DNA of 64,000 nt, taken from NCBI GenBank assembly GCA_973895155.1, contig OZ316892.1:3537223-3601222 (forward strand). The letters are read 5' to 3'. Of this stretch, positions 12,420-63,354 are shown one piece after another; position 1 is the stretch's first letter; each line of letters begins with the position of its first letter. The notes beneath the pieces were generated by a model. That model was not told the DNA's origin, did not search any database, and saw only the letters and a list, made by a program, of their open reading frames with translations. This DNA is from Marsupella aquatica (lineage: Eukaryota > Plantae > Marchantiophyta). The position numbers and the translations under genes were made by a program.

Positions 12420-12975
12420 ATTGGCCTCCACGTGTATTAGTCCACAGCCTTTAAGAACATAGCGGTCTGGTAAGTGCACATCAAAATATGATACATAGGG
12501 GTGTATTGGCCTCCACGTGTATTAGTCCACAGCCTTTAAGAACATTGGGGTCTCGGTAACTGCACATAAAAATATGATATATAGGGGTGCATGACATCCC
12601 TCCATACCATGATAATTTTTCTTAATTTCTTTAGAGGACATCCCTCCATACCATGATAATTTTTCTTAATTTCTTTACATCAATTAGTGCCAGTGTATTA
12701 CATAAATTTCCTTATTTTCCTTAAATCAATTAGTGCCAGTGTATTACATCCCTCCTTACCATGACCAAAATATGATATATACAGGTGTATGACATCCCTC
12801 CATACCATGATGAACCTCATCATTTTCTTTAAATCAACTAGTGCCCTTGTGAGTATCACATCCCTCCATACCATGCCAAACCTTGTTATTTTCTTTAAAT
12901 CGACTAGTGCCCGTGTACGTATCACATCAATCCATACCATGCCAAACCTTGTTATTTTCTTTAAATCAATTAGTG
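12420..12975. repeat. Compound tandem repeat: two 85-bp units followed by degenerate 44-66 bp units sharing ACATCCCTCCATACCATG
   Basis: ATTGGCCTCCACGTGTATTAGTCCACAGCC at 12420 and 12505. The ACATCCCTCCATACCATG core recurs at about 12594, 12638, 12746, 12792, 12858 and 12924. Confidence 0.85.
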
Positions 12976-15900
12976 CACACCACTTATTACACATTTGATG
13001 TGTGATTACCTGTAGGGACAACATTGCCACTAAAGATTCTAATTTACAATAGAGTGTACAGTGGATAAGTGTAGCATGTATAACTGCATGGTAGTTGTGT
13101 AGTTCCTCAATAACACAGCAAATTCCTTTGTAAATGTACCAAAAATGCACCGTCTGTAAGTGCAGGCTGCCCGACATTAAACAACAAATATACAAGGCCA
13201 TTTGGTCTATAAGAGTACAGATGCATTAATCAATGATTCCAAGACATATATTAGAAACATTTATTGAAAGGTGTAGCAGACAACTATACATTGCAGTTTC
13301 ATGCACTTATCCAGTTGAATCATGCACTACGAGGGTTCTGGGTATGAGAAATCTATGTGTATGACCTGACAACACATTTGTGGAAATGCATGTTATTACA
13401 CTTGTTAAATATATACTTATCAATGGGTGACGGGCAACCTACACGTATGGAACTATAGGGGGTTTTTAATTCCAAATTTAGGACTATTCCTAGAATATTC
13501 CATAAAGTTAGGGGGTTAAAAAATACTTTGTTTTCTCAAGTTTTAGGGTGTTTATTACTTGAAAACTTTGTGCGTGATATGGGATATGGGACCTCCCTTG
13601 GAGTGAGGTCCCCGAGCCAAAATATGGTCCACAAGTAAGAGCTCTCTGTCCAACGTGGTGGTCCATCTAGGCTTCACTTTCCCCATAATCTTACTAGTAA
13701 AGTACAATCAAACCGTATTGTTTAGGGTTAAGGTCTAGAGTAAAGCCTCTACACCGTGACTCTAAGGTGTAACTAAAAACTGGGGTGGGGTGGAAAATGA
13801 CCAGGAGGCAATGGACTGAGTATGCACAATTACTAGTCAGAGATGACTAGAGATTTAATGCAAGTCTCTAAACTAGCTGGATTAGATGCAAGTAGCAGGG
13901 CAAGTAGCTAACCGGCACCCAGTTGGTATTGACATTCAAACCAAGGCATTGAGGAGTAGCTAGTGCTAGGGAGTTGGTGATGGCGATGGAAACCTGGGGA
14001 ATGCATGTGAGATGCACTTTTCTGTACTCACCTCTCTCCATGTTCAAAGAACAAGTATTCACACTAGTTGCATATCAAAATGTACCTGCCATGTCACTCC
14101 ATATCATAATAAACTCTAATATTTTGTTTAAATCATTGAGTGTTATGAAGGTTTGTGATATGCAATTTGGGGATGCCATTGAGATCACTCCCTCTTAGAG
14201 CCCTGCCAAATCGGGAGTAGCAAGCTGGTGAGGCACCTGCGTACCGGGCTGCGTACCTAGCTGGGTTTATGCGGGGGTTTACGAAGAGTGCAACCAGATG
14301 TCCCGGACCACTTGTCCCACCTTTCACACTCACTAAAAATTGTCGGTCATGAGTGTGTCAAGTGCACTCGCCAATGCATTTGTCCCATTGAATAAGAGAG
14401 GGCCAATAGCAAACATCAATTGATCTTGGCAGCCTTTGTCACACTCTGTGGTCTTGGACCCTAGGATTGTCAGTCTCCAAAAAGCATTGAAAAGGTCAGG
14501 CTGGAATATTGCGATGCACAGACCATGACAAAGTGGGGCTCAAAAATTGGGCCTGTGGGCTCATCCCAGGATACTTGCTCCTAAGTTGCCCCACCAATGG
14601 GAGTATATATTAATTTTTTGTACTTGCGGGGGTCACTATATGGAGGGCCATACATTGTGTGGGACATTGTAGGATTTGACCAACTTATGAGTAAAAAACC
14701 AGATTTGTAACACCCTTTTTTTCTTTAAATTTTGCCATTTTTTACTTTAAACCCCTAAAACCTTTAAAGAAAGAATTTTTTATAATTAAATAGGCCTATT
14801 TGTTCTTAAAAGCCGTTCAATCAATAAAAAATGTCATATTAATTCTTCCACAAACTTTGGAAGTATTATGCCTCACCCATTTAAATGGCCCTAAACTTCA
14901 TTGCATGTGATGGGCCACTTCTGTAGAAGTGACCCCCCCCAAAGTCTTTGGTCAAGGTCAACAACAGACGGACCAAAAATCTCAGTGTTCGATAAGGAAA
15001 AGTGGACAAAATCTCAATGTCCAAAAGGGAGAAGTGTCAGTCATGCCAAGTCTCCAAAGACTAAGTTCTTATCTCCCAACTCACAGGCTCTATAACAATG
15101 AGCTAAATTCCTCTAACTTGCTAGCTAACTCTTGCTGATGAACATAGTACTAGCACATCCAATTATATCCTGGAAGCACTTGAATCTTGTTCAACTAACT
15201 ACAACTACATAGTAACTCTAGACCTAGAAGTAAATGTCTAACAGTTTATTTAAAGAATGTTTTAGCGCAAATTGGACCATTTGATGATATGTTAATAAGG
15301 GCTCACAAAAGTTAGCCAAAGTGTGTTACCATCCAAAATACTGGAGAATGCTAAATGATAGTAGACAAGCAAAACCTCTGAAATGATGAAAAAGCTGGTG
15401 CAATGTGTGCAGTTAAAAGGAGAGGCTAGGATGCAACAAAGAGTCTAGCTCAAAAAGTCACAAGCACAACAAGCAACAAAACTGAGCAAACACCACTAAA
15501 TAATAGGCATTGTGGATGATGGGAGTGTTTTCCATTGAACACTGCAAAATATAGTAGCAAAGATGTCCTACCAAACCCTGAGCATAAGATATTCTAATGC
15601 CTAATTGCATTCACTTTATTAGTAATGGCATTCATAGCAATGTTGGTAGAGTGCATAAAATATAAGTTTTTTAAATAGGTCTGTGTTGAAACCCTTTGCC
15701 CACAACTGACCAAACCAGATCACACACCTGTTGTAATTGTTAAAGGCGGGGTTAAAGGAGAAAGATGACATCCATATAGCATGCTAAGTCCATCAAAGCA
15801 AAACAATATGGGCATGATCTAGAGACTGCAATATGTACCCCCTCCCTACACTCCTTCCTATTATTCCTACATGGTCCTAAATTGTCCTTTAATTCCCAGC

Positions 15901-17136: not shown

Positions 17137-18540
17137 CTAGCTCAATACCCTGTGCGTTGCACAAAAGACGTCGTGCAGAAAAAAATGTTGTGTTGCCCAA
17201 GATGTTGTTAAAACACATGTCGTGGCACCCAAGATGTCACTAAGAAAAAAAGTGTTGTGGCGCCCAAGATGTCGTTAGGAGAAAAGATGTTGTGTTTCCC
17301 AATATGTTGTTATGTGAACAATGTCCTGAAGTAAATGGATGTCATTTTGCCTAAGATGTTGTCAAGTAAATAGATGTTGTGTCACCAGTAATGTCATTAT
17401 GCCAAAGATGTCATTAAGTACAAAGATGTTGTTAGGTACAAAATGGTCAATAAGTAAAGTATGTTATTAGTCAAAGATGTTGTTAAGTACATCTTGGGCC
17501 CGATACCTGTGCATTGCACAAAAGATGTTGAGGTGAGAAAAGATGTCAAGGTGAAAAAAGATATCAATGAGAGAAAAATATGTACTGGTGAGAAAAGTAT
17601 GTCAAGGAGAGAAAAGATGGTGAGGTGAGAAAACGACGTCAAGATGAGGGAAAGATGTAGAGGAGAGAAAGAATGTCAAAGTTGAGGGAAAGTTGTCATG
17701 GTGAGATAAAGATGGCAACGTGAAACAAGATGACAAAATGACAATATATATGATGAGATGACAATATATATGTCGAGATGAGAAAAGATCTTGAGGTGAG
17801 AAAAGATCTCAAGATGAGGAAAAGTTGTCAAGATGAGGAAAAGATTTTGAAGTGAGAAAAAATGTCTTGGTGAAGTGAAGATGTCAATGTAGGAAAAAGA
17901 TGGTGAAATGAGAAAAAGATGTCAAGGCAAGGAAAAAATGTTGAGTTTGAGATCTACATGTAAAGATTAGAAAATATATCTTGTGAACGTGAGAAAAGAT
18001 GTCAAGGCATGGCAAAAAATAATAAACGTTGTGATGTTGAGGCATGTTATGTGTGATCCTGGCCATACAATAGTTGTGGTCGTGTTAACCCGTGCGTTGC
18101 ATATAGAAATTGGAGACGCGAGATAACGACCACCATATCATAGAGGCCAAGCATAATTGAGTGACAGGAAACTCTGTGTTTTTAAAAAAAATTAGAACAA
18201 ATACTTTCAATATATTTTATTTATAATCAAAATTATTTCAAAATTTTTAGAATTATTTATATATGAATAAACTGAATTAGTATTTAATTAAGTTTCTCAT
18301 TGTAACAGGTATGGGAAGGCCAAAGGGTAGCTTGGGCAGGAACTTGTTTTAGAAGGGGTGTATGGATACATTTGATGGTGTAGAGAAATTAATATTTTGA
18401 TGAACGGTCAAGATTCACTTTTTTTTAATTTGTAAAGGGACTGGATACCTATTATAGTGGTACATAGTAAAGGGAGGACGTCTCCTTGATCCTGGTGCCG
18501 CATTGCTAGAGCGTCTCTCCATTTACTTTGTATAATTAGA
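17137..18540 (-). mobile_element. Probable non-autonomous Helitron filled with degenerate AAAGATGT tandem repeats
   Basis: Minus strand begins A|TCTAATTATACAAAG (18540) and ends with hairpin TGTGC-AAC-GCACA (17163-17151) then CTAG|T (17140-17137). A|T target, no TSD. Extra hairpin-like copies at ~17505 and ~18090. Confidence 0.55.
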
Positions 18541-22896: not shown

Positions 22897-24257
22897 AGAG
22901 GACGTGTTAAAAGTATTTTATGGCGAGGATTTAAATCGCCACTAGCTACAGGGTAGTGTCAATACTTTTACCTTTGTTTTCTTCAGCTACATTACCACGC
23001 TACATTACCACTAAAGATGTACAATAGTGTCACTATTTTTGTAGTATTTATAAAATGCAACAGTAGATGGTTACCTTGGTAAATTTGTCATCCATATACA
23101 ATCCATATACAACACTGTGACATTTTTATAAATACAGGAAAACAATGATAGTATTATGAATTAAAATATTTTAGTAACAAAGTAATTAATTAATTTTTTC
23201 TTTCCTGGAATTGTTCTTCTCTCCCCTTCCATATTGCTCCACATATTCACTGAAACTATATTATTTATGGTAAAACCTGGTGGTTTGCGTCATGGCTAGT
23301 GGTGGGTTAAGGAGTTCTGGGCTATCTAAATACCCATAAGAATCTTTAAGTCTAACAAATTTCCACCCATAATAATTTGCTTAGGGGAGAATTTTGACGT
23401 GCCCTAATGGCACAGATTGGGGGCTTTAAGGGAGAAGCCTTTGACTATGCGCTGTGGACAAATGCCGGTCCAAATGTATCGGCATTTGGTATGATCTTCC
23501 AGCAAGGTATTGGGGTGACTTTACAATACTGTCCTGGTACTTGTGACTTTTTCATCTTGCATGTAAGTAATCGGCCCTTTCTTTTGCAGCCTGACTTCTC
23601 CCTAGTTTTCACCAGCTCCAGATTTAGTGGGCCGGCCTCATTTTGTTTTCATTAGAGCATCCGCACTGGTCCGCCATACAAGGTGGCCGGTAGCGTAAAT
23701 GCAGGGTTTCGCCAGGGAATCTGTTTTTGGCCTCCCCACCGAGCGACAATAGGGTTCCGCCAAATGGCAGGGACGGGATAAACAAATTCCCCCTGTTAAG
23801 TATCGACGATGATCGCAACGGCAAGCACAACTAGATTTTGTTGTGTCAGATGCAAACAATACCTCCTCATAATCGTCGTTAATATAATTAACGACTTCCA
23901 TGACTACGTTTATAACTACGTCCGACGTAACGGCGACGTCGGAGAAATCTAAGCGCCGATTGCCCCCATTTTAACGTCGCTGGAAACACATTAAAATTAA
24001 CGTCTCTGGATGAGCTGTCCTAAACGTCGTTTTGGTCGTCGTTCAATATTAACGACGTATTAGAGGACGTAATGTGTTTAGGGTATAACGACGTCAATGT
24101 TTACGTCGTGGAGGGAGACGTACGTAAAAGTGGTAACGTTGCTCTGTAGGACGTTCCGATTGAATCAAGCCATGTTAGACGTTGAGTACATCGGTGTGGA
24201 CGACTTGAATGAGGAGTAGTCCATGCTGACTCGAGTATAGCTTGGGTTTTCTACAGG

Positions 24258-24936
24258 AGGATTTTGGTTTAAGAGTGCTGAGACCAAAGTAGGCTTGCAT
24301 TTGTGATTTTTGGAGAATGCACTCTTCCTGAGTACAGAGAAATTGCAGCGTGGGATCTAGACTCAGTGTTCAGTCATGGTGCGCAAGTTCTTCAAAGATG
24401 TGCATTGTTGCTTCCTTCCACTTGGTGAAGAGGACAAGACTATACGTGGGTTCTTTTGTCGGGGAGGTGTTATTGAGAAGTTGTGTACCTCGGAAACAGA
24501 CTACTTGCTGGCCTATACGTGGAAAGAAGTTGTTGAGCACTTCAGTGACTACCATGGATTGATCGAGCACTTTGCAGAGACAGTTCATTTCATTTCTATC
24601 CGTTGGGTAGAGTGCTCAATTCTGGCCAACAAACAGTTGGATCCAGGAGACTTCCTGCTGCATCCAGGTGATGATCAGATGTTGGATGAGGCGCCCAACC
24701 CAGATGATGGGGAGGCATATCCACCTACATTGCCCAAATGTGAGCTGTCTCCGACTGAGCTTCACATTGTCTTGTATGATTACAAGGAAAGTTGTGCAGT
24801 TGAGGTTGAGGCTGAAAGGCTAAAGGCTGGGGAAGAGGTCGTCCGGAAGAAATGGAACCAGAGGCAGAGGCGTGATTCTTACAAAAGAAGGAAGGCAGAT
24901 GAGGAGTACTACTGGTCTGGTGAAGGAACTCCTTAA
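24258..24936 (+). pseudogene. CACTA-internal ORF weakly resembling the C-terminal DUF4216-like region of TnpD
   Basis: 186-aa ORF 24376-24936, extended upstream in frame through two stops to an acceptor at ~24257 (GFWFKSAE...TQCSVMVRK...GGVIEKL...FISIRW...LDPGDF). Similarity judged by eye only. Confidence 0.4.
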
Positions 24937-25399
24937 GTAGCAACAATCTGGATGTCAATGGATGAGGCAGTTTAGTGATTCGGCTAGGTTATAGTCGCTT
25001 TGTGGTGGACATGCAATGTGCTTTGTAGGACCTTTGTATCTCTATATCATACTGAAACTGAATAAAGACTCCCTCATGTTTTTCATTTTGAATGCATGTG
25101 CCAATTAATGTCACCACTGTCATTAACGTCGCGCGGATATAGTAACATTGCAATACACGACGTCTTTGGTTTAATACGTACCCTAAAACGACGTAAGTTA
25201 GTTTAACATCGTTTTAAGTGGAGAATCAACGTCGTGTGGAGTAACGTAAACGGGGTCGTGGCTAAATTAACGTCGTTGAAGGCTCAATAAAATGACGTTA
25301 ATTGGAATTAACGTCTGCCTGATACGACGTAGTTTGAAGATACATTGGTCTACCGAACGTAATAGTCATACAACGACGTTACCCACAGATGCTACAAAC

Positions 25400-26896
25400 C
25401 CACATGAAGGTGGCCATAACGAATATATACATGCACTGAATACATTTATGGTCATGGAGCGTGACTCTGGTCATGGAACTCGTGCCACTCAGCATTTGGC
25501 CTAAACCCTGAACGCCGAGAACCAATAGTGCTATTGATGTAACCCGCCAAGTTCCCCGTGCGAGGTGGGTAACCATCAATCTGAGCATACCTAGGATCCA
25601 ACTTTAGTGACATGCCATATCGACTAAAGGTTGGGCACTGTCGGGACAAGATGCGCCATCTTGCCGCCGAATACTTGGGCCCATAGAATGGAAACAACTA
25701 AGGCAAATCATCGGGTGCACAACCGGTAGGGACCACGATATCCACAAGAGCAAATACTCCAAGTCCTACATGAGTCCCCAATGTGGAGGGGAGGATGACC
25801 CATGGGCGGTCCCAAACTATAATAGGCTCCCGAAGCGGGAGGTCCATAGGGAGTCCAAACTCGGCTGGGAAGGAGTCCTTTAAGATGTCCAAGGCTCTCC
25901 CTCGCAACTGTCTCGGTGCCCGGGACACCGATGCATCAAGAAAAGGGCATCAGGGCGGAACAATCCTAGGTGGACGGGACTCAATCGATCGGGGTCTAGT
26001 GGTCATCACTACTCCCCTTTCAATAGGGTGCATCCTAAACACTCTCCTCCTCCTCCGAAATACACGGTCTATCTCCCTCAATATGGCTGGCAAATCGGAT
26101 GGATGGACGAATGGTGCGAGTGCACGATATGCAATGTCTCTCAAGCGGTCCACAGGCGAAGATCGCACTACAACAGGAATCTGTTCCACATGTTCACCAA
26201 AACAAGTTCAGAATATGACAATCAAAAAACAATTCAAGGAAGGAGATGTTATCATAATTGCAATACCCAACAAAATTGTATTACCTCTCGGGTCGGGGGG
26301 GTGTAACGACCATGGATCCCTAAATGGCTAAGGACAGTGGTCCTCTCATGTAAGACAACACCCTTGCATCGTCTGCAAGGGCAAGGCATCTTGCGAATTG
26401 GCCCAATCCCCTGAAGAGCAGCCATGGCCTCTCCAAATCCATCAGCATGATGGGGGCTCCGGCCTCTCCTACCGTCGGAACCATGTCTGCATCGACGATG
26501 CCTGGATCGGTGATGCCTAGATCGATCATACATGTCTGGTGAGTAATCTCTCTCCCGGTCCGACAGGTCGTCCCTCCCCCTATGATGATGGTCATCTCTG
26601 CATCGGGTGTAAGTACCCCCACCATGGTCCTCATAGGATGAGTCATCCCTCCTCCTCCCTCCCTCGTCATCCCTCCTCCTCTGCCGCTCGTCATTGCTCC
26701 TATAGCCCGATGAAGCTGAACTCCCCCTATGCCGATGATGGTGTCTATGTCGGTGAGAACTACCGCCATGCTCATCGTCATCGTCACACGAGTCATCCCT
26801 TCGCCTATCCGACTCATCATACGTCCCCCTATGATGATGATGGTATCTGTGCCGATGATGCCTGCCCCCATCATGGTCCGATGCATAGGTTGCCAT
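25400..26896 (-). pseudogene. CACTA-encoded spliced gene: His/Arg/Asp-rich N-terminus + transposase-associated Zn-finger + SET-like domain (premature stops)
   Basis: Exon 26896-26285, then a phase-0 GT-AG intron 26284-26181, then exon 26180 onward in one frame with stops at 25950, 25698 and 25452. Motifs CPCRRCK...TVLSHLGIHG, STLGTHVGLGVFALVDI, FPFYG, IDG...GNLAGYINST...PNAEW. Confidence 0.7.
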
Positions 26897-27311
26897 GTCC
26901 CCTGTGATCAAATTTACAAAGGCCCCCACAACATATTAAACCCCAAGCATAAACGTATCCCGCTACGTTAACCAAACTAACGTCCATCCACACGACGTTC
27001 CCCTAAAATTAACGTCGTTTTTTAGGTTGTGGGGAGGTTGCCGAATTTAGTTTACGTAATAATGTACGACGTACTTAATAAGTTAACGTCGTTAGGTATG
27101 ACGTAATTATATGTAACGTCGTCGCTAAACCCTACACTCCTGGTTAACGTTGTGATTAATGACGTTAAATTAGGGTAACGGCGGGTCTCCAAGGTTCGTG
27201 GGCTACGGCTGTTTTCCTTTAACAAAACATCGGGAAGTGACTTGAATGTGACTCACATTCAACATTCAACACTTCCCCTCTCCCCCTCTCGACCTCCTAT
27301 CTTAACAGTGA

Positions 27312-29222
27312 ATGACTATGGCTCATCCAGGCTATCTCCCTTCCAGTGGAGATTTTGATGCAGACTTGGTGGCTATGGATGATCCAGGGGAGTTAGAAAA
27401 GGTGCGTAAAGCTATGCAATCGACACATTCGCTGATACATGCTTTCAACCAGAGTTGGAAGTTCTTGGGAGGAAAAGGAAGCAAGGAGTCTCAGTTTCTG
27501 GAGTACCTGGAAAATATAGAGGCCAATGCTCCTACCCTCGATGATTATGTGGAAACTGAGAATGCAACGCTCTTGGGGGAGGATGGGGGGCCTTCGATCG
27601 ATGCTCTGAACTCCTTCCCGTCCCTACTAGATGATGGGTGGGACGATCCTGCCTTCAATGGAATGCAGCCTGATTCTCAGGCACCTAGTGGGACCCCAAT
27701 CAAGAGTGTGGTCCGGGTAGCACATGAAAGATTCCAGCCTGATCAGGATCGGGACTCTCGCAGGCGGAGGAGGCATCGTGATAGAACACACAACAGCAAT
27801 AGCAGCCTTGATGAGAGAAGACGGAAGGGGAAAGGGAAGGAGTATAGAGATGCAGATCCACACAGTAGAGGTACATACAAAAGAAGAAGAACAGAGGGAG
27901 ATGCAAGGGCAGACAGAAGAGAGAGGTACTCACCTCAGCGTGAACGTCACTCCCACAAGAAGCGACAACCTTCTCTTGCGCGACCGGTAACTACTACTGT
28001 GAGTCGAGACAAACTCCCAACCATCACCTTGGATGCGTTTGATGCTAGGCCGGATGTTCTGGATGAGAAGGCCCTCACAAATCGAGTGCAGACGTGTTGT
28101 GCCAAGCACTATCCTGGTTGGACAACTTGGAAGGATCTCGCGCAGAACCCAAAGAAGTTTCAGCTCCTCCTGAACGATGTGCAAGCTGGGTTTAAGAACG
28201 GCCATGAAATAGACTATAGGCACATCAGACAAAAGATCGTAGGCTACCTTGCAGATCGGAGGTTTAGATGGAGAAACAAGGTTCAAAAAATGAGATGCCC
28301 AAGGACAGAGCAATACCTGAAACCAGAAGGAATGAGCGACGCCGACTTCAAGTTGATCGTGGCTGAGTTGGAAGCAGCACCTGACACCCCAGTAGGCAAG
28401 CGAGTGCACATGGGGGACAAAGCTGCTGCAGCCCGCAAATCAAATGGCCGCCTGCGTGTGACCAATTTCTGGGGCCAGGGAGGATGGCGAGGCTTCCTTG
28501 CAACCTATGTAAGTCCCCCACCCTCTTCAAAGCACAACTTGTTCATGCTTCGGCCGCTGCGGTGAGAACATTGAATTAACATCGTTTTTCTCCTTAACGT
28601 CGCAAGTTCTAAATTTAACGTCTAGACCCCCTACGTTCATCCTACCTAACGTCGTCTCTCGCGACGTTACATTCAATTAACATCTTTTCTACATCGTTAA
28701 TATTGAAGTTTCACTATATACCTTGTCTTGGACGACGTTAATTATAAAACGTCGTTAGGTACATTGTAGTTAACGACGATGGTGACGATGTTCTCCAATT
28801 TCCTGTAGAAACGCAAGTTTGGAGCTAACGCCGAGCCAAGTGAGTAGGAGCGGCTCTATTCAAAACGCTATGGCCCGACGGCCCTATGGGCTAAGCTGGA
28901 CTCAGTCCCGGAGGACCACCCAGTGGTAAGTTACATAGTCAGGTTAGGTTCCTTCTATACTAGGTTTTGCATCCACTATTTGCAGGAGGTAAACTGATCC
29001 CTTATGTCATATCCAGGAGGATTGGAGTCCTCCAGAGGGGTTAGTGGCACGACCCATTGCGGAAGATGAGGAGGCAGATCATGGAGGGGAGGAGCCTGAT
29101 ACGCAGGAGGAGGCCTTAGTAGACTGTGGGCAGGAGGGCAGTTTAGGTACACAGGGCCGGTCATCTTCTAACCTCTCCCCTCCAGTGGAGACTGATAGGG
29201 GTCATACCAGCCATAGACGACG

Positions 29223-29258
<36 letters not shown>

Positions 29259-29524
29259 AGAGAGAGGGGGGGAGGGAGAGACATAGAGAGAGGAAGAGGA
29301 GCCGTGTCGAGAGGGATACCACTAGGGGACATAGTGGCACAGTTAGAGATGTAGTCCCTAGGAGTAGAGGCAAGGGAGCTGTGGAGTTGGTGTCTGGTAG
29401 CAGTAGTTCAGACGAGGATCCACTTCGGTACGAGTTGCGGCCCCGAGGCAAACAGTCGGAGGCACCGTCACGTATTTCTGTTCGCAGGTCTGGACGTGAT
29501 AGGAGCCGCTCTCAGCGGCATTAG
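27312..29524 (+). CDS. CACTA TnpA-like (Ptta/En/Spm, Transposase_24-like) gene, spliced, partly degenerate
   Basis: 417-aa ORF with TWKDL...F...I...RRFRWR...KPEGMSDADFKLIV...AARKSN...NFWGQGGW pattern. Donor GTAAGT at 28509; in-phase exon 28809-28925 (one stop); final exon ~29017-29524, R/E/S-rich. Confidence 0.55.
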
Positions 29525-30650
29525 GGTATACCATGCATGACTAGGTGGACGTCCACCTGCATTTTGTACATTTTTGGCACAAACTTTTGACGCCACCCAT
29601 TTATAGTGGCATTCCGGACTTCATATGTCTATTTTATGTGTATTCCGTGTGTATATGAACCTAAACCTAAAGCCCACCCAACTAAGGTAGCCTGGAAGGA
29701 TGTTCCATACAAGATTAATGTTTACCACAAATGGCACTCCATTCACGTCTCTCCATTCTTGGTACTATTTTCAAACGTTCTCGTTAACACCATTTTTACC
29801 AAGCCTCACACGACTAACTACTCATACGTCCTAGACAGACTCATCATTAACAAAGTCACAAACTACGTAATCTGAAATTAACGTCATTTTAAACGATGTT
29901 ATCAGCTGATTTCCCTGTTCAATCTGCGTCCAGAATAACGTCTTTATTTACGACGTTAATATGTAACATAGTATGGACTGACGTATGTAACGTAGTTTTG
30001 GACGATGTAAACTATAACCTTTGTTACTTCGTACAAAACGTGCCGTCATTCACGTCGAGTATGTCGCCTTTCTTTAGCAGCAAGGAGACGTCGGGCTTAA
30101 CGTCTTCATGTAACACGTAAAAAGTCCTGATAATGTAGTTGTGAAGCCCATGAATCATCCAACGCACAATAGTCGACACAGAGAGATACGTGGTTCACCT
30201 CCTCATGAGGCTACATCCACGGGAACACACAAGAGCTTTACTGCACTCTAGGCCGACCGGCCATACCAAGCATCCACAGCACAAGCTCTCTCTATCTCTC
30301 AACTAGCTCCGTAAGAATGAGCCTGAGTTCCATCTCTCCAAGCAAACACTGTTTGCTTATAGAGTGTGCACAGCATGACTAACCTAACCATGTCAGCGAC
30401 TAAGGTTAGCCTTAACTATGGTACAGTCGTAACTCTAGACCTAAGATTAAATCCTAACAATCTCCCCCTTGAATCTAGTCTAGGGGAGGGTAAAGACTGC
30501 TACCAATATGATTGCTCAGCGGGAAGTTCTGGAAAGAAAAACCAAACCGGTTTTTCCCTCTTTATACGAGAGTAGACCAAAACTAAGCCATAGCCTACAC
30601 AAGGAATGAGCAAGAGCATATCTCAGTATCTACACAAATGTTAAGTAACC

Positions 30651-35900: not shown

Positions 35901-38900
35901 TCTTCTCACCAGTTGCTAAGTACTCAACAATACGGCTATTGTGTGTGCTTGTTGTAATGTTTGGTCTACTGCTAGATCAGATGGATGTTGTCACAGCTTT
36001 CCTCTATGGCACTATCGTAAGCCGTAAGAACACAAAAGTAACAAAATATGTTTATAAACTCGAAATTCAATCCCTTTAGGAACAGAATTGGAATAGATTG
36101 AATGATATAGTAATTTTGAGAGGTTTAGAGCCTCTTACTCTATATAGCTCAAGTTTTCCTTATAGGAGAATTAAATAAACTAACAAAATACAAGCAAGGG
36201 AAATCTTCTGAGTTATGAATAAAGGTAAGTTTCAATTGAGTGAGATAATTATCAATTTGATATTGCCACTCCTTCAAAAAGGACTATGGTCTTATTGTAT
36301 ACAAACAAAATCTCTCTAAACTCATCTGAACTTTTCTTAAATCCATAACAATACTGATTGAAAGATTTATGCTCACCAAACCCAAAGTAGTTTTCTGATT
36401 ACAGGTACTAAGATATGGATCCACTATTATGCCGTCAACATGGATTGATTATTAGCGATGAGCAATTTCAATCAATCACTAGTGGATATACCAGAGTACA
36501 TGAATGATACTAGCTACTATAAAAATGGAATTTTTGCTTCTCTCAATCCAGCATTGATTCTCAAATTGGCTAGCAAATCTCATCTGAGCAAGTCTAGAAG
36601 TGAATTCGACATGAATCTCAAAAGACTGTGATTGTAATTCAGTCACAGAGGGCATCTACTCAATTCATTCACACAACACATAACATATATTTTACAAGTT
36701 CCATACAAGTCTCTCTTGTTACAATGGAAGGAGGGAACCCATCCAGAATTCTGATATCTGAATAAAATTGTGCCCCCCAGAAATGAGTAAACCATGAGGT
36801 TTTATAGGTAAAGGTTTCTAGTTGAAAAGGCATGACCTTTCAAACCTCAAATATCTAAAAGATAATCCTAGAAAAGATGGAAAAAGTAAAGTGTGGGAAA
36901 TGCAGTGGACGCTTCAGAAAGCGTCAAGGTTTGAGTGAAGGTTCGTCGGTGTTTTATGGTAAAACTAATAAACAGTAATCTTAATCTAATTTTAACTTCT
37001 AAACTAAAAGTCGGAATGAGTTGAAACTTTTCTAGGGTACTCTACTACATAAAATCTCTATGCTGCCAAAGTTTCAGACTTTTCTAAGATCTTTAAGTGC
37101 CTCAAATAAATTGGTAAAAGTGGCAGTGTTATAAAAGTGCGAAAACTGAAAACTTTTCTAAGTGTCGGGAACATAATGGACGCTTCAGAAAGCGTCCAAA
37201 ACTACAAAGGACTTTTGTCGACGCTTCAGAAAGCGTCGACTGAATTTTGAGGTTTTGGTCGCAGCGTTCGTCTTCTGGTCTTCGGGGGACGTTTCGTGGG
37301 CGTTGTAGTGTCGATATCGCCTTTGGGGTAGCGGACGCCTCAGAAAACGTCGCTCCTCATGTGGACACTTCAGAAAGCATCATGGTGTCGGGTGGATCGT
37401 AGAGCGTCAGAGTACAGCTGGTTGGATGGCGGACACTTCAGAAAGCGTCGTCACTTAGCGGTTGTATTTCAAAGCGTCGCTACCTTCACTCTTCCGAGTC
37501 CGTATAGTTACTTCTTCACCAACGGACGCTTCAGAATTTGGTGTCGCGTTTGGAGGCGTCGCGTCTGGCTGGCTAGCGTCACATATGGATGCCTCAGCTG
37601 TATTGGGCTTTCTTTCGCTTTGGACTGGGGACGCTTCCGAAAGCGTCCCTGTAGAACAAATGGACAGACTTGAATTAAGCGTCATATTGGAGAAGACGCT
37701 TTAGAAAGTGTCGTCTTTCACCCAAAAAGGTTTGAAAAATTCCGAATTCGCTCTTATTGACATATTTCAACAAAAGTCCCTTTTCTACAAGCACCTTGGA
37801 AGAGGTAATCTTCATGAGACAGCCGCTAGGTTTTGTGAAGAGAGGACAAGAGGAACTGGTTTGCAGATTGTTGAAATCCTTGTATGGGTTGAAGCAGTCA
37901 CCAAGACAGTGGAACAAGCGGTTTGACGATTGGATTCGGTCACAAGGTTTTCACAGGAGTGTGTTTGACCCTTGTGTATATTTGAAACCGGTAAAAAATA
38001 TTGTCTTTGGGTTCATTGTTTTAGTACTTTATGTGGATGACATACTTATTGCGGCCAAGGATAGGTCTGAGATTGTTAAGCTCAAGGCACTGCTAAGTGC
38101 AGAGTTTAAGATGAAGGACTTAGGGCCAGCTAAGAGGATTTTGGGTATGGAGATCACTAGGGACTTGGAGGCTGGTAAGCTATGGTTGACACAGAGCAGT
38201 TATGCAAGGAAGGTAATTGTCAGGTTCAACATGGGGGATAGTAAGCCAGTAAGTACCCCTTTGGCTGCACACTTCAAATTATCATCAACTTTTTGTCCCA
38301 CAGATGCAACAGAGAAGGGGCTGATGTCAAAGGTTCCTTATGATAAGGCAGTGGGAAGTCTCATGTATTTGATGACTTGCACTAGACCTGATCTTGCCAT
38401 GGCTATGGGCAAGGTAAGCAGGTACATGTCAAATCCAGGGAAGGTACATTGGGAAGCAGTGAAGTGGATTATCAGGTACTTGAAGGGTACCGTGAATCAT
38501 GGTCTTTTATTTTGATGCAAATGCAAATAATGCAAGATCATTGATTGGCTATGTAGATTCTGACTATGGACAAGATCTGGACCGAAGGAGATCAACAATA
38601 GGGTACGTGTTCACACTTGGCGGTGGATGCATAAGTTGGAGGTCTACTTTGCAGAAGTGTATTGCTCAGTCTACTATAGAAGCAGAGTATGTTGCAGCAG
38701 CGGAAGCAACGAAGGAAGCAATTTGGTTGGATAGACTTATCACTAAAATAGGATTGCCACAGGGGAATGTGAAGCTCCATTGTGATAGTCAGAGTGCGCT
38801 CCACCTTGCTGTGAACCAGGTGATGGACAGTAGAGTGAAGCACATAGACGTCAGGTACCATTTTATCAGGCAGGTTGTGTTTGATAATTTGTTTGAGCTA

Positions 38901-57684: not shown

Positions 57685-58608
57685 AGGTGCAGGGCAGATA
57701 AACGCAGCATTTTGGGATCGTGTAGCTGCTCACTACAACCACCATCGACCAAAATGGGCTCAAGAGAGGGGAGCAAGATCGTTGGAAAGCAAGTGGCAAG
57801 ACCTAAAGCATGACGTTGCAAAATTTTGTGGAGTATATGGTGCAGTAGAAGACCTGAGGTTGTCGGGAGTAAATCAGGAAGATACTTTCCAAAAAGCACG
57901 TGAATTGTACCAGCAGAAGAATGCAAAAGGGAAAGAGTTGCATAATTCGTAGACTGTTGGTATATGCTCAAAGACTACCCACAATTTTCACAGGCAGTGG
58001 AGGATATGGCATCAAAGATGAAGGGAAAATCTCAGTGCAAGGGGAAGGGTGGACCACCAGACAAAGAGAATGTGCCTCCAACACCAAATTTGCCAACATA
58101 AATCATTAACCAACATGGTGGAGGTCACTCAGGTATAGATGGAGTTGAATATAGCTCAAACTCACAGCAAAGGCCAATTGGTAACAAGTCAGCCAAAAAG
58201 CTTAAGTCCGAGGAGTGTTCTTTTCGCATTGCAGCATATGCACAGCGGGATATGGCAACTGCCAACGCCAAATAGATGAAGATCTTGAAAGATCAAAGCC
58301 TACACAACTTGTTTAGCATGAGGGCTGCAGATGTGGATGATGAATGCAGAGAATTTTTTTGAGCTTGCAGAGCCCGAGAGCTTACCAAATTTGCACAAAG
58401 AATTGAGCAAGAAGAGGTTGAGGCTACTAGAGCCTCTAGACTTACAAGTACCACACCTCAGGTGCCAATTAGCAATGACATTGAGGAACCTAGTGTTCCA
58501 GAATCAGCCCAGACTCCAAAAGTCTCTAGCCCTGACGAGAATGAGAATTATTTCATGGGCGATTTGGCAGGGGGGCTGGGAATAGGAAGGAGCAGTCCAA
58601 TTGAGTAG
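57685..58608 (+). pseudogene. Harbinger Myb/SANT-like (NAM-associated) gene, 5'-truncated at the Gypsy end
   Basis: GQINAAFWDRVAAHYN...RGARSLESKWQDLKHDVAKFCG...SGVNQED...ARELY...CWYMLKDYPQF...RPIGNKSAKK. Frameshift and stops; convergent with the transposase. Confidence 0.85.
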
Positions 58609-59090: not shown

Positions 59091-61316
59091 TCTTACTATA
59101 AAAGCGTCAACTGAAGTTTGCTGTGAAGAACCTTGGTCTAGAGTGAAGCCTCTAGACCGTAACTCTATGGTCATCATGTGTATGTGAAAAACTCATATGG
59201 ATGTGCGTACAAAAAGAGTATTATGCACATAAAGAAGAATGGTATATTATATATTACTATTAAAATGATAGTTTTTTAAAAAATAGTATGTAGTATTGCA
59301 CTAAGGACATAAATCAACATTTAATGTCCAAAACTCGGTATTCGATCCCATGGAAGAACAAGAAAGGAATGATTTTCTATCATTTAACATTTATGAATGA
59401 CTAAGGTAACAAAAACACAGGTTTGAGCCTTTTATTATGATTGCTCAGCAAGGCATAGATTTGAAAGTTGCTTAACATTGTAAATGCAATTAATAAAATG
59501 AAAACAAATAACAAAACACAATGAAATCTTGAGGTATGATGAGGGAGTCTAGAAAACACCAAGGTAACTTCTCAACAACACTTCATTTGACGTGATTTGG
59601 GTGGTACATCCGTAAGAACATTTTTGTAATGGTTTACTGTACTAGGATGATTACTAAAATGCCGTCAACACGTCTCAACTTTTCCTTCCAAAGGTACTCA
59701 GAAGAAACTAGTAATCAATCACTTTGATATCCAGTCGGTACTTTGCATCACGAATCATAAACATCATCATGATCAAATTGAAGTCATAGGTAATTGGTGA
59801 GTAATAATCTTTGCATCCCGTGCACAAGCAATGACACGCCAAAAACTATGCATCAAGAACTCAAGAAGATGGGTTGTCACCACTTAAGGAATCTATTCCC
59901 TCATACTTCTGAGATTCAACTTCATACAAATAATTTTACTTCAATGATCTAAACTCTCAATCATTCAAACCAAGGAAGGGAGAAGAATTCCTTTGCATTT
60001 GCAAGCTCCATACAAAAACAACATGAAAGCTTTACTTTGCAAAGGTGATTCAATGCTGCAACACATGCCACAAGCACTACTTTATTTCTTCACACTCGAG
60101 AATGACACAAATTCTACTTCATATAGGCTAGCAGGAACCCAAGGAGACTGAGATACTGAAAGGACATGCCCTTTCATATCTAAAGGGTCTTGAATAAACT
60201 TAATGACGGTAATCCTTGAAAAGTGAATGGACACTATTGAAAGTGTCAAAAATGCAGGGGACGCTTCTCAAAGCATCGAGGTTTGAGCGGACGCTTTGCA
60301 AAGCGTCGGTTTTTGCGGTAAAACTAATAAATAGTGATTTTGTCAGAATTGTAACTTTTAAACTAAGAGTCGGAATGAGTTGAAACTTTTCTAGGGTACT
60401 CTACTACATATAATCTCTATGTAGACAAAGTTTCAAACTTTTCTGAGACCTCTAAGTGTCTCAAATAAATTGGTAAAAGTGGTGCGGTGTTATAAAAGTG
60501 CAAAAATTGAAATTTTTTCTAAGTGTCGGGAACATAGTGGACGCTTCAGTCAGGCGTCAATACTTGGCGAACGCTTTCGAAAGCGTCACTTCTCATGTAG
60601 ACGCTTCTCAAAGCGTAGTGGTCTTGGGTGGACGCTTCAGAAAACGTCCAAAAATACAAGGGACGCTTTACAAAGCGTCGACGAAGTTGCAGTTGTGCAA
60701 AAAAAAAAGCAAAACTAAATTAATTCTAACTTTCAAACCACAAGTTGGTTTGAGCTAAAACTTTTAGGATGATTCTACTACGCAACTACTACCTCCTGAA
60801 AAAGTATGAGACTTTTCTGATCATGATAACTATTTAATTAAAATAGCAGAGATCGGTTGATCATGATAATTGCACACAGAGCTCATTCTTGCTGAAGAAG
60901 TGTTTTGGAGTCCGGTTCTTGAATCTTCTAGTCTGCATTGCTTCTTGTCCAATATAGGTAATAGCCTTCGATGAAGCATAACATTAGATAAAGTGTTCAG
61001 TTGATCTAAATTGCTACAATAGGTAACTAGACTACACCTTTGAATTAGAAAAAGTTCAAAATTTATAAAATTTCCATCATTTCTAACTAATGTACTGTAT
61101 TACAATTTTATTAACCTTCAAAGAATATGGCCATCATGTGAAAAACTCATTTGGATGTGCATACAAAAAGAATGATGTGCACATAAAGGAGAAAGATATA
61201 TTATATATGATTATTAAAATGATGGATTTTTTATATATGAATAGAGAATATATTTTAATGACATTTTTATTGTCCTCTCCGCTATTCATGTTCAAAAAAC
61301 GGGTAGTCGGGGCTAG
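59091..61316 (+). mobile_element. Non-autonomous Helitron
   Basis: Starts TCTTACTATAAAAG, ends with an imperfect hairpin (61279-61302) + 10 nt + CTAG. Sits between A59090 and T61317 with no TSD. Its removal restores the transposase codons CAT AAC A|TG ATA. Confidence 0.88.
59289..61018. mobile_element. Second, diverged family-X solo LTR inside the Helitron
   Basis: TGTAGT...CTACA. Block 60321-60558 is clearly homologous to 36962-37196 and carries the same GACGCTT...AAGCGTC palindromes. TSD not clean. Confidence 0.6.
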
Positions 61317-62633
61317 TGTTATGTACAATGATACAAGAAAGAACGATGTCTTTGATCACAACTTGGTTGTGGATCCAAACAGGATTTTGAATAATGCTAA
61401 AATGAGCTTGTAGCACACCAAAAGCTCTCTCAACATCTTTTCATGCACCTTCGTGGCATTTGGCAAACCACTTCCTTGCTTCACCCTGTGGCAGTGCTAT
61501 AGTTTGAACAAAGATGGACCAATCTGGATAGATACCATCACTGAGGAGGTAATATCTGTCGTATTGTGATGCATTCACAATAAATTTCAAGTCATGAGCC
61601 TCACTTCTCAAAAGATTGTTCACCAGTGGGGACCTGTCCAAAACGTTCAAATCATTGTTGCGTCCAAGGAGGCCAAAATACGCATGCCAGATCCAGAGGG
61701 ACTGGTCTGCAATTGCTTCTAACACAATTGATTTTTGTTTGTCCTTGTTTGTGAAGAGCCCTTGCCATGGAACAGGGCAATTTTTCCAGACATCATGCAT
61801 GCAATCTAATAAGCAAACATACCAGGAAATCCTCTCCCTTCATTGATTTCCAGTTGTCTCTCCATGTCTTCCTTGGTTGGTTGCCTCAAGTAATGCCCCT
61901 AAAAAACTCCACGAACAGCTCTGCAAAATTTCTTCAAAGAATCCATAGCTGTTGCCTCTCCAATCCGGCAATACTCGTCCATGGCATCTGCTGAAACTCC
62001 AAGCGAAAGTTGTCTCAATGCTGCTGTCATTTTCTGTATTGAGGACAGACCATCCACTCTAGCAGCATCCTGTTTTTGGAGGAAATAATTGTCAGCTTCA
62101 CACACTGAATCATGGATTTTCCAAAAGAGATGTCTTCTCATTCTATAGCGCCTCCTAAATTGGGCATCAGTGTACATTGGATTCTCTAAAAAATAGTCTT
62201 TCCATATTCTCTCATGCCCAAGCTCTCTTTCCCGATCAATGTTCTTGCTTTTTCCAGGCAAAGATCCACCTCATTTCTTGCTTCTGTGTTGTTTGTAGAA
62301 CTCCATGAGAGCCAGGGGTGCAGAAACTGTTGTGTGCTCCCACCAGGTCTGCTCTTGTTCCAGTTCTTTCAATTCATCTTGAATCTTTTGATTCAATTGA
62401 GTCCGCCATTGACCATGAGAGGTCATCGCGAAATAATAGCATGCAACGACCGCAATTGATTGACAAAAATTGATCACCAAATAGAACAGGAATTGTTGCT
62501 CCAAATGCGAATTTCAATCCCATCCCTAATTAAACTTTGGTCCCTGTGATCATTGAAGCTATGGATGACGTGAAATTGCGTCGAAGATTTCCAGCTATGG
62601 TGGCCAGGTATTGATCGAAGCTGTGGCGCTATG

Positions 62634-62978
62634 TGTTGAGCATAGACGACAATCGCAACGGCAAGCCCATGAACCATCCAACGCACAAGAGTCAACACAG
62701 AGAGATACATGGTTCACCTCCACATGAGGCTACGTCCACAGGAACACACAAGAGCTTTACTGCACTCTAGGCCGACCGGCCATACCAAGCATCCACAGCG
62801 CAAGCTCTCTCTATCTCTCAACTAGCTCCGTAACAATAAGCCTAAGTTCTCACTCTCCAAGCAAACACCACTTGGTTATAGAGTGTGCACAACATGACTA
62901 ACCTAACCTAGTCTGCGACTAAGGTTAGCCTTAACTACGGTACAATTGTAACTCTAGACCTAAGAGTAAATCATAACA
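62634..62978 (-). mobile_element. Copia solo LTR (same family as the Copia B LTR)
   Basis: TG...CA, 345 bp, perfect TSD CTATG (62629-62633, 62979-62983). Near-identical to 23794-23825 + 30147-30459. Confidence 0.93.
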
Positions 62979-63354
62979 CTATGGAGTCGATTAAGCTTTG
63001 CAACTATGGTGGCCGGGCCTCCTCGAGCATCAAGCAGCAGCCATGCTCGACGTTTTGTGTGGGGTACGTCAACAATGGAGTTGGACAGGAGCAAGGTGTT
63101 TCGAACTCGGGTCAAAAAATAGCGGAGGGATTTAGCAGGATGGGTGGGGAACCCTACCCACTGCAATTAGTGCCCGGACCGGCAAGTGCCATTTGGCCTC
63201 AGCACTTTGGCTTATATGGACCAGTATGGTCCGCATGGGTGCGGATGCTCTTAGATCTGATAGGTAAGGAACTCAAGCCTTGGGGCCATTGCCCTTGGTT
63301 CCCCACTATATGTCAAGCTTGAGGCATAAATTTTCAGTCAGTCTTTGAATGTCA

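Follow-up and report, generated by a model that had tools for sequence, protein, structure and literature searches.

The question raised by this locus is whether a transposon can carry binding arrays for one of its own proteins throughout its non-coding DNA, and what such arrays would do there. The transposon is a CACTA-type element of the liverwort Marsupella aquatica, a single insertion of 6318 base pairs (bp) at positions 23826-30143 of the window, which is the whole stretch of 64,000 nucleotides (nt) that was analyzed (contig OZ316892.1, positions 3,537,223 to 3,601,222). Its ends and target-site duplication were read from the sequence. A sequence-only reading of this DNA had described dense AACGTCG/CGACGTT arrays in every non-coding segment of the element and had suggested that these arrays, together with a SET-like gene, could form a sequence-specific anti-silencing or self-marking system. 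The half-site recognized there is real, but the actual unit, which that reading missed, is a pair at fixed spacing: an inverted pair, TAACGTC-N9-GACGTTA, with 21 sites distributed over all five motif blocks of the element and none in the other 57.7 kilobases (kb) of the window. The five blocks, none of which is assigned to a strand, are as follows.

23870-24210, no strand: motif block 1, left subterminal, upstream of a 186-codon open frame; 6 paired sites
25115-25385, no strand: motif block 2, internal, flanked by two converging 3' ends; 2 paired sites
26950-27185, no strand: motif block 3, internal, in the divergent promoter region; 4 paired sites in a near-regular chain
28570-28795, no strand: motif block 4, within intron 1 of the TnpA-like gene; 3 paired sites
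29680-30125, no strand: motif block 5, right subterminal; 6 paired sites, including a degenerate one

The geometry of the pair is fixed. Gaps between ACGT cores cluster at 15-16 bp, and helical phasing at 9-13 bp was not seen. Twelve forward-reverse pairs stand exactly 15 bp apart, compared to a mean of 0.74 and a maximum of 6 in 5000 random placements, in which the largest count at any distance was at most 8. The gaps from reverse to forward half-sites are looser (14-17 bp), with a period of about 31 bp and recurrence in the same orientation at 29-32 bp. The bare arrangement ACGT-N11-ACGT occurs 14 times in the element (2, 2, 6, 2, and 2 per block) and is absent from the other 57.7 kb. A profile built from the 12 pairs detected 21 sites at a spacing of 15, nine of them outside its training set, and at most 4 at any of 14 other spacings (9-23). 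Every one of the 21 lies outside coding DNA.

What lies between and around the half-sites is free to vary. The 9-bp spacers are unrelated (median 4 of 9 positions alike), and no pairing was found within them. Departures from the half-site consensus were one-sided in 57 cases and compensated on the other half in 3, compared to 3.8 expected by chance. Beyond the motif, nine of the ten block-to-block comparisons revealed no significant homology and one reached p 0.01, while tandem repetition across the five blocks was confined to a single 32-bp repeat of 1.9 copies. Unrelated spacers and the lack of co-variation argue for reading by a protein rather than for hairpins or recent duplication. Five blocks in which the same distance, but not the spacer sequence, was independently re-established point to selection for a dimeric DNA-binding protein, and on this sequence evidence it is very probable that such a dimer reads TAACGTC-N9-GACGTTA.

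The distribution of the half-site agrees with that of the pair. Motif counts were set against the remaining 57.7 kb of the window as background. With up to one mismatch, TAACGTCGT was found 33 times in 2596 nt of non-coding DNA of the element and not once in 3722 nt of coding DNA (binomial p 2e-13), and the background held 4 hits. The five long non-coding segments carry 6, 7, 7, 7, and 6 hits, and each count exceeds all 100 dinucleotide shuffles of its own segment (means of 0.26-0.43, maxima of 2-3). TAACGTC is the most enriched 7-mer, with 21 occurrences in the element and 1 in the rest of the window. In a held-out test, the top five 7-mers were learned from the two terminal segments alone: the internal long non-coding DNA (1231 nt) held 50 occurrences of them, coding DNA (3723 nt) none, and the 57.7 kb outside 17. 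For these counts, 29017-29524 was treated as coding, although support extends over 29017-29286 only; the interval is free of sites either way. The sequence-only reading was therefore right about dense arrays in both orientations at all five places and about their scarcity in exons; the enrichment over background on which it made its proposal depend is present as well. Its phrase "every non-coding segment" holds for the five long segments, which the arrays fill in part, but not for the two short introns (104 and 91 nt), where no site was found and 2.7 were expected (P about 0.07).

Two further observations concern arrays of this kind. Several joints in related contigs delete parts of blocks 1 and 4 (23930-24161, 28589-28780, and nearby), which suggests that array length varies between subfamilies, with the proviso that joints of low likeness can stem from repeats. 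Another repeat, present in two copies in the window (36860-37735 and 60205-60705), carries inverted-pair arrays of its own, GACGCTT..AAGCGTC, with 13 and 9 half-sites. The GACGCTT half-site is one base off the one studied here and does not occur in the CACTA element.

The limits of the element are marked by the following features.

23826-30143, no strand: whole non-autonomous CACTA-type element, inside a Copia long terminal repeat (LTR), 32 bp from the LTR end
23823-23825, forward strand: left target-site duplication AAG, read from the sequence
23826-23837, forward strand: left terminal inverted repeat CACAACTAGATT, 11 of 12 bases matching the right end
30132-30143, reverse strand: right terminal inverted repeat, reading inward CACAACTACATT, read from the sequence
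30144-30146, forward strand: right target-site duplication AAG, read from the sequence

Three features that define CACTA/En-Spm elements were found: short CAC(T)A-type ends, a 3-bp duplication, and a subterminal motif in both orientations (blocks 1 and 5). The earlier designation "CACTA element" holds by the ends and the AAG duplication, but the termini, 12-bp inverted repeats alike in 11 of 12 positions, begin with CACAA and not CACTA. These ends fit the CAC..GTG terminal rule as given in PMC12730594. Once joined, the LTR flanks of the element match an intact LTR copy at 62634, and the empty-site joint (23822 to 30144) is represented by one contig each in runs X1 and X2, that is, in two of four runs. 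Contigs covered all 30 bins of the element in runs X1-X3 and 26 in X6, at a likeness ranging from below 90% to above 99%; the depth of contigs gives no copy number, and no single contig spans the whole element. Coverage by contigs of varied likeness indicates that the entire arrangement is common to a family that comprises several subfamilies. Open frames and family searches revealed no TnpD DDE transposase frame between the ends, only a transposase-associated finger (PF13963), so this copy is non-autonomous.

A PIF/Harbinger identity for the element was rejected, as the Harbinger end at 23656 is that of a surrounding element, which closes at 63250. This outer PIF/Harbinger element (23656-63250; ends GAGCATCCGCAC, TTA duplication) has Copia, Gypsy, and CACTA insertions nested within it over about 39 kb, and remnants of its two genes seem, by eye, to lie at about 57690-58600 and 61560-62400. 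The window also holds two degenerate tandem arrays, at 17230-18010 and 12570-12990, with units of about 18-19 bp and 44-66 bp.

Which protein might read the pair depends on what the element encodes. Its genes are arranged as follows, with splicing based on homology.

24376-24936, forward strand: 186-codon open frame, function unassigned, covered by contigs of all four runs
25452-26180, reverse strand: SET-family exon with two in-frame stops (25700 and 25952), its last approximately 30 codons missing at 25457
26181-26284, reverse strand: short predicted intron, motif-free, 104 nt, GT-AG, phase 0
26285-26896, reverse strand: first exon, a low-complexity His/Arg/Asp stretch and a transposase-associated zinc finger (PF13963)
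27312-28508, forward strand: exon 1 of the TnpA-like gene, an open frame with a conserved N-terminal helical stretch, a basic linker, and a helical domain
28509-28808, forward strand: TnpA-like intron 1, holding motif block 4, supported by the spliced Calypogeia fissa model P0029
28809-28925, forward strand: TnpA-like exon 2, with an in-frame TAG at 28845
28926-29016, forward strand: TnpA-like short intron 2, motif-free, 91 nt, supported by spliced P0029
29017-29286, forward strand: TnpA-like exon 3, acidic and then a GA repeat, 3' end uncertain

Block 3 lies 56 and 128 nt from the two start codons of the divergent genes. The spliced P0029 model covers 28221-28508, 28809-28925, and 29020-29091, and its alignment has no gaps where these segments meet. 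It confirms both introns of the TnpA-like gene, so that block 4 is intronic by evidence independent of the motif. At the TAG at 28845, no alternative base is listed (85% share), and close copies may share this stop. A full HMMER search of 1.84 billion representatives returned 21 matches to the TnpA-like protein, whereas word-index searches with the same frame returned none. One long repeat protein (P0027) was spurious and was excluded from both alignments; the fold was based on 12 hits and alignment A4 on 20. Named relatives of the two larger element proteins come solely from the leafy liverwort Calypogeia fissa (P0007 and P0029). The domain model from the 12-sequence alignment comprises 173 residues in six helices, including a long basic helix, at a predicted local distance difference test score (pLDDT) of 82, compared to a poor single-sequence fold (pLDDT 51). 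By eye, the C-terminal stretch presumably resembles the plant TnpA family. Collectively, the predicted protein has the look and position of a TnpA, and its membership in that family is putative. Its N-terminal approximately 75 residues (27330-27540) form a separate conserved stretch, the sole part covered by 6 of the 21 hits, and are a candidate dimerization or partner domain.

The SET-like gene of the sequence-only reading proved to belong to a real SET family with a transposase-associated zinc finger. Ten homologues, 43-61% identical, were recovered from 1450 candidates, and all ten match PF00856 (E-values of 1e-5 to 0.04; two of the ten above the curated cut-off), whereas the truncated SET exon of the window itself has no PF00856 match. 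The zinc finger matches PF13963 at an E-value of 5e-5, which is under the curated cut-off. Both in-frame stops are private to the window copy, as the other runs carry G at 25700 and 25952. The C-terminal motif with the final, catalytic tyrosine is missing from the window copy and present in all ten homologues. Loose contig ends at 25457 in runs X1-X4 read on, by our own reading, in frame like the SET homologues, which suggests that other copies keep the SET C-terminus. No meaningful match to the SET family came from searches of solved structures. The remaining 186-codon frame has no Pfam or NCBIfam match; it is intact and conserved across the four runs, a third cargo gene that none of the readings offered here accounts for.

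A distant family provided a second view of the array. Its locus, L001, was the sole related one found, from 93 metagenome-contig candidates, 20 viral candidates (none), and 47 prokaryotic candidates (none). L001 shares the layout of the finger-SET gene: a finger exon that is 55% identical, an intron after the same zinc-finger codons, and a SET exon 44% identical to the query. Its upstream array contains a variant half-site, TACG[TA]CCT, five times (0.01 in shuffles), and TAACGTCG not at all. Scanned with the window profile, this array yielded 3 pairs at a spacing of 15, one of them degenerate, and none at 14 other spacings; the remaining 1875 nt of L001 held no profile pairs at spacing 15. Two other tests of L001, a permutation of sites picked by hand (p 1e-4) and a post-hoc pattern (3 pairs, spacer of 9 only), were circular, and the profile scan was relied on instead. 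At the level of sequence, the pair geometry is kept between the families while the half-site drifts, and half-sites that differ between families are as expected from co-evolution with a protein of the element. L001 also contains, at 850-2195, the SET exon with one stop, followed by an in-frame acceptor and an acidic exon. The acidic exon has no Pfam match and presumably resembles the start of the TnpD core. It may be part of a transposase, in which case the finger exon could be spliced to either SET or transposase.

The explanation that best fits these results, which we hold at roughly even strength, is that all five blocks are binding arrays for the element's own TnpA-like dimer. In this mechanism, the dimer would bind the paired sites in every block; the terminal arrays (blocks 1 and 5) would serve transposition, and the internal arrays would hold off DNA methylation so that the internal promoters and the long intron stay accessible. 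TnpA-type activation would thereby reach internal promoters and an intron as well, similar to the situation in VANDAL elements. We propose that internal arrays arose because this lineage has several genes whose internal promoters lie beyond the reach of terminal arrays. The parts of this explanation differ in strength. The reader of the paired site is probably the TnpA-like protein. That the internal arrays serve trans-activation or anti-silencing, beyond mere transposition or repression, is only slightly favored. The zinc-finger and SET product may add a histone mark, and nothing found here ties it to the arrays.

Several results weigh against this explanation. First, no Pfam family, that of plant TnpA included, matches the frames of the window or any of the 21 TnpA-like hits. 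Fold searches with the TnpA-like model all remained under noise (best Z score 5.2; several Myb, BEN, and homeodomain entries at 3.8-4.7), and matches at that level exclude no family. Second, block 2 sits between two 3' ends, away from any promoter, and in Arabidopsis both TnpA binding and hypomethylation are described as confined to the termini (bioRxiv 10.64898/2026.08.24.746577). Third, a single distant locus, of 2.2 kb, was readable; its array is not provably internal, and its alignment with block 3 is weak.

Fourth, CpG dinucleotides speak only in part for the explanation. In its favor, the observed/expected CpG ratio is 2.13 in the blocks, 0.40 in other non-coding DNA, and 0.58 in coding DNA, and the decay products CA/TG are fewer in the blocks (0.72 vs 1.35 and 1.15, respectively). 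However, 100 of the 121 CpGs in the blocks are in ACG/CGT context, so the high CpG content is partly circular: the motif itself supplies most of these CpGs, and selection to preserve the site would leave the same picture as methylation that stayed low over the long term. A check on CpG decay in the window copy revealed no protection: private decay had struck 2 of 134 CpG cytosines of the internal blocks, compared to 4 of 260 elsewhere (Fisher p 0.67, low power; 23 of 26 rows kept, three dropped because one run was below 75%). Two further motif CpGs have been lost, at 28789 and 29968. These losses imply that the arrays of the window copy were methylated, as expected if this copy is silent; it is broken and buried in nested repeats. 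The private changes at 24900-29020 were also strand-biased, with 14 G-to-A and 3 C-to-T changes in the 26 rows (p 0.013) and 13 and 3 after dropping, and they fall in CG, CHG, and CHH contexts.

The same TnpA-like dimer could occupy all the blocks and yet use the internal arrays for transposition, by coating or looping, or for self-repression. We consider this rather unlikely. It is consistent with maize TnpA, which is described as required for excision, as blocking read-through transcription, and as regulating both positively and negatively (PMC2613891). Block 2 between converging 3' ends and block 4 in an intron are places where a roadblock could act, and the lack of CpG protection in the window copy fits as well. 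However, the known transposition arrays are, in the accounts cited here, subterminal only; block 3, at the divergent promoter, has the densest and most regular chain; and in the distant family an array lies upstream of the same gene.

A more elaborate possibility, which is unlikely, is a self-contained system of chromatin marking. The dimeric TnpA-like reader, sitting on arrays at every promoter, the long intron, and both ends, would recruit the element's zinc-finger SET enzyme, produced as an alternative splice product of the transposase gene, and the resulting histone mark would shield the element while reader and site co-evolve between families. If this were true, the element would encode a reader-writer pair working like PRDM9, and TnpA-type control would date back to the base of land plants.

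It is improbable that the reader is instead the transposase-associated zinc finger, in the SET product or in a transposase supplied in trans, and that the arrays are where the element methylates its own chromatin. The finger-intron-SET layout is common to the window element and L001, with an array directly upstream of the finger-SET gene in both, and close copies read through the stops of the window copy. The SET family also retains the GxGxF, INS, and final tyrosine positions, which we take to be meaningful for a SET domain. Yet one finger of 40 residues makes a small reader for an 8-bp half-site, a copy with a broken SET gene retains its arrays, and no relative among solved structures was found that would indicate a substrate or activity for the SET family. 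Furthermore, the motif reader in known CACTA elements, as far as the cited accounts go, is TnpA.

The arrays might also act as enhancers through which a dimeric host factor of the bZIP, NAC, or MYB type, with an ACGT core, drives the element's genes in some cell type. ACGT cores are common among plant transcription factor sites, the arrays flank promoters, and a spacing conserved between two distant families is what a conserved host factor would require. This is nevertheless improbable, as the other 57.7 kb of the window lack the paired site, the half-sites differ between families, and both subterminal regions are filled with the same site. In addition, the cores of the palindromic NAC site are about 11 bp apart, a distance shown by only one pair here.

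Very little speaks for internal blocks that are the ends of nested derivative elements or duplicated subterminal DNA, an outcome that the sequence-only reading had named as fatal to its own proposal and that we judge highly improbable. CACAAC does occur just before blocks 3 and 4 (26927 and 28533), and one of the ten block pairs, noted above, aligns better than controls. However, other runs have G at 28537, so that the CACAAC before block 4 is a change of the window copy, and no matching inverted end with a 3-bp duplication was found around any internal block. The blocks are not homologous to each other, and contigs of about 10-15% divergence join them to the same neighbors (e.g., 28413-28678 in X1 and 28626-28849 in X3). 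Together with the intronic position of block 4, these results largely refute nested ends and leave a single element. Finally, short hairpins in RNA or single-stranded DNA, which each site could form as an inverted repeat of 7-8 bp with a 9-nt loop, are disfavored as a highly improbable reading by halves that vary without co-variation and by spacers without pairing.

Compared to the TnpA systems already described, the arrays explained as binding sites of a TnpA-like dimer show both likeness and difference. Arabidopsis TnpA binds clustered, family-specific, CG-containing motifs, which leads to CG hypomethylation and activation, and TnpA-like proteins are said there to be limited to flowering plants (bioRxiv 10.64898/2026.08.24.746577). 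A similar anti-silencing action is described for TnpA of maize En/Spm (PMC10398659, PMC2613891), and TnpA is predicted to dimerize (PMC13547354; bioRxiv 10.1101/2024.04.02.587720). The anti-silencing in a different superfamily that the sequence-only reading suggested thus has a precedent: according to these accounts it is already known for TnpA in maize and Arabidopsis, though at element ends. The window element belongs to the same superfamily as Arabidopsis Spm1 and Spm3 and maize En/Spm and likewise has a family-specific, clustered, CG-containing motif. Like Arabidopsis Spm1, 1A, and 4, as described in PMC13547354, it is non-autonomous, having kept a TnpA-like gene and lost the transposase. 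It differs from the TnpA systems as reported in that three of its five arrays are internal, its host is a bryophyte, its site is a fixed inverted pair, and it carries a SET gene. In addition, its TnpA-like protein has no detectable sequence match to the TnpA family.

The other comparison is with VANDAL elements, in which the motif arrays reported to be bound by VANC occupy introns as well as intergenic and terminal DNA, with the motifs in a single orientation within tandem repeats (PMC5735166). The dense short motif in internal and terminal non-coding DNA, absent from exons and variable between families, is shared with that system (PMC5735166, PMC10398659). The VANC-like layout proposed by the sequence-only reading therefore stands as far as introns, intergenic, and terminal non-coding DNA are concerned; the arrays themselves consist of inverted pairs whose spacers are unrelated and are scarcely tandem, unlike VANC motifs as described. 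VANDAL elements are Mutator-like, whereas the window element has CACTA-type ends and a 3-bp duplication. Family searches of the element detected no VANC-like protein, and the element is, as judged by them, outside the VANC family. The action of VANC has been demonstrated in the cited work, whereas that of the window element is deduced from its sequence. By analogy, the arrays most likely work like TnpA sites spread in the manner of VANC targets.

SET genes as transposon cargo are known from the red-algal Plavaka element PAG2 (bioRxiv 10.1101/2025.02.11.637652) and the Phytophthora proto-Helentron (PMC4067079), as well as from HarbingerS and Phytophthora MuDR (cited in PMC12730594). In those reports as here, the SET-domain gene of a DNA transposon is proposed to work on chromatin, and Plavaka, of the same superfamily, is described with inverted-repeat arrays beside its accessory gene. 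The hosts and proteins reported there are different, and here the SET exon follows a transposase-associated zinc finger. A literature search in which subscription journals, Repbase Reports, and preprint supplements were thinly covered found no report of internal motif arrays in CACTA elements or of a bryophyte CACTA element with a SET gene.

These results have implications beyond the single locus. The fixed TAACGTC-N9-GACGTTA geometry supplies an exact probe together with exact controls and makes the question of the reader directly testable. The neighboring SET gene is a candidate element-encoded chromatin writer, a role that has been repeatedly proposed for transposon SET genes and, in the reports cited, not shown. 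In the accounts cited here, sequence-specific escape from methylation silencing has been worked out only in flowering plants, for VANC and TnpA. VANDAL-like internal arrays in a bryophyte CACTA element would mean that this strategy evolved once more, within a different superfamily and at a much earlier stage of plant history.

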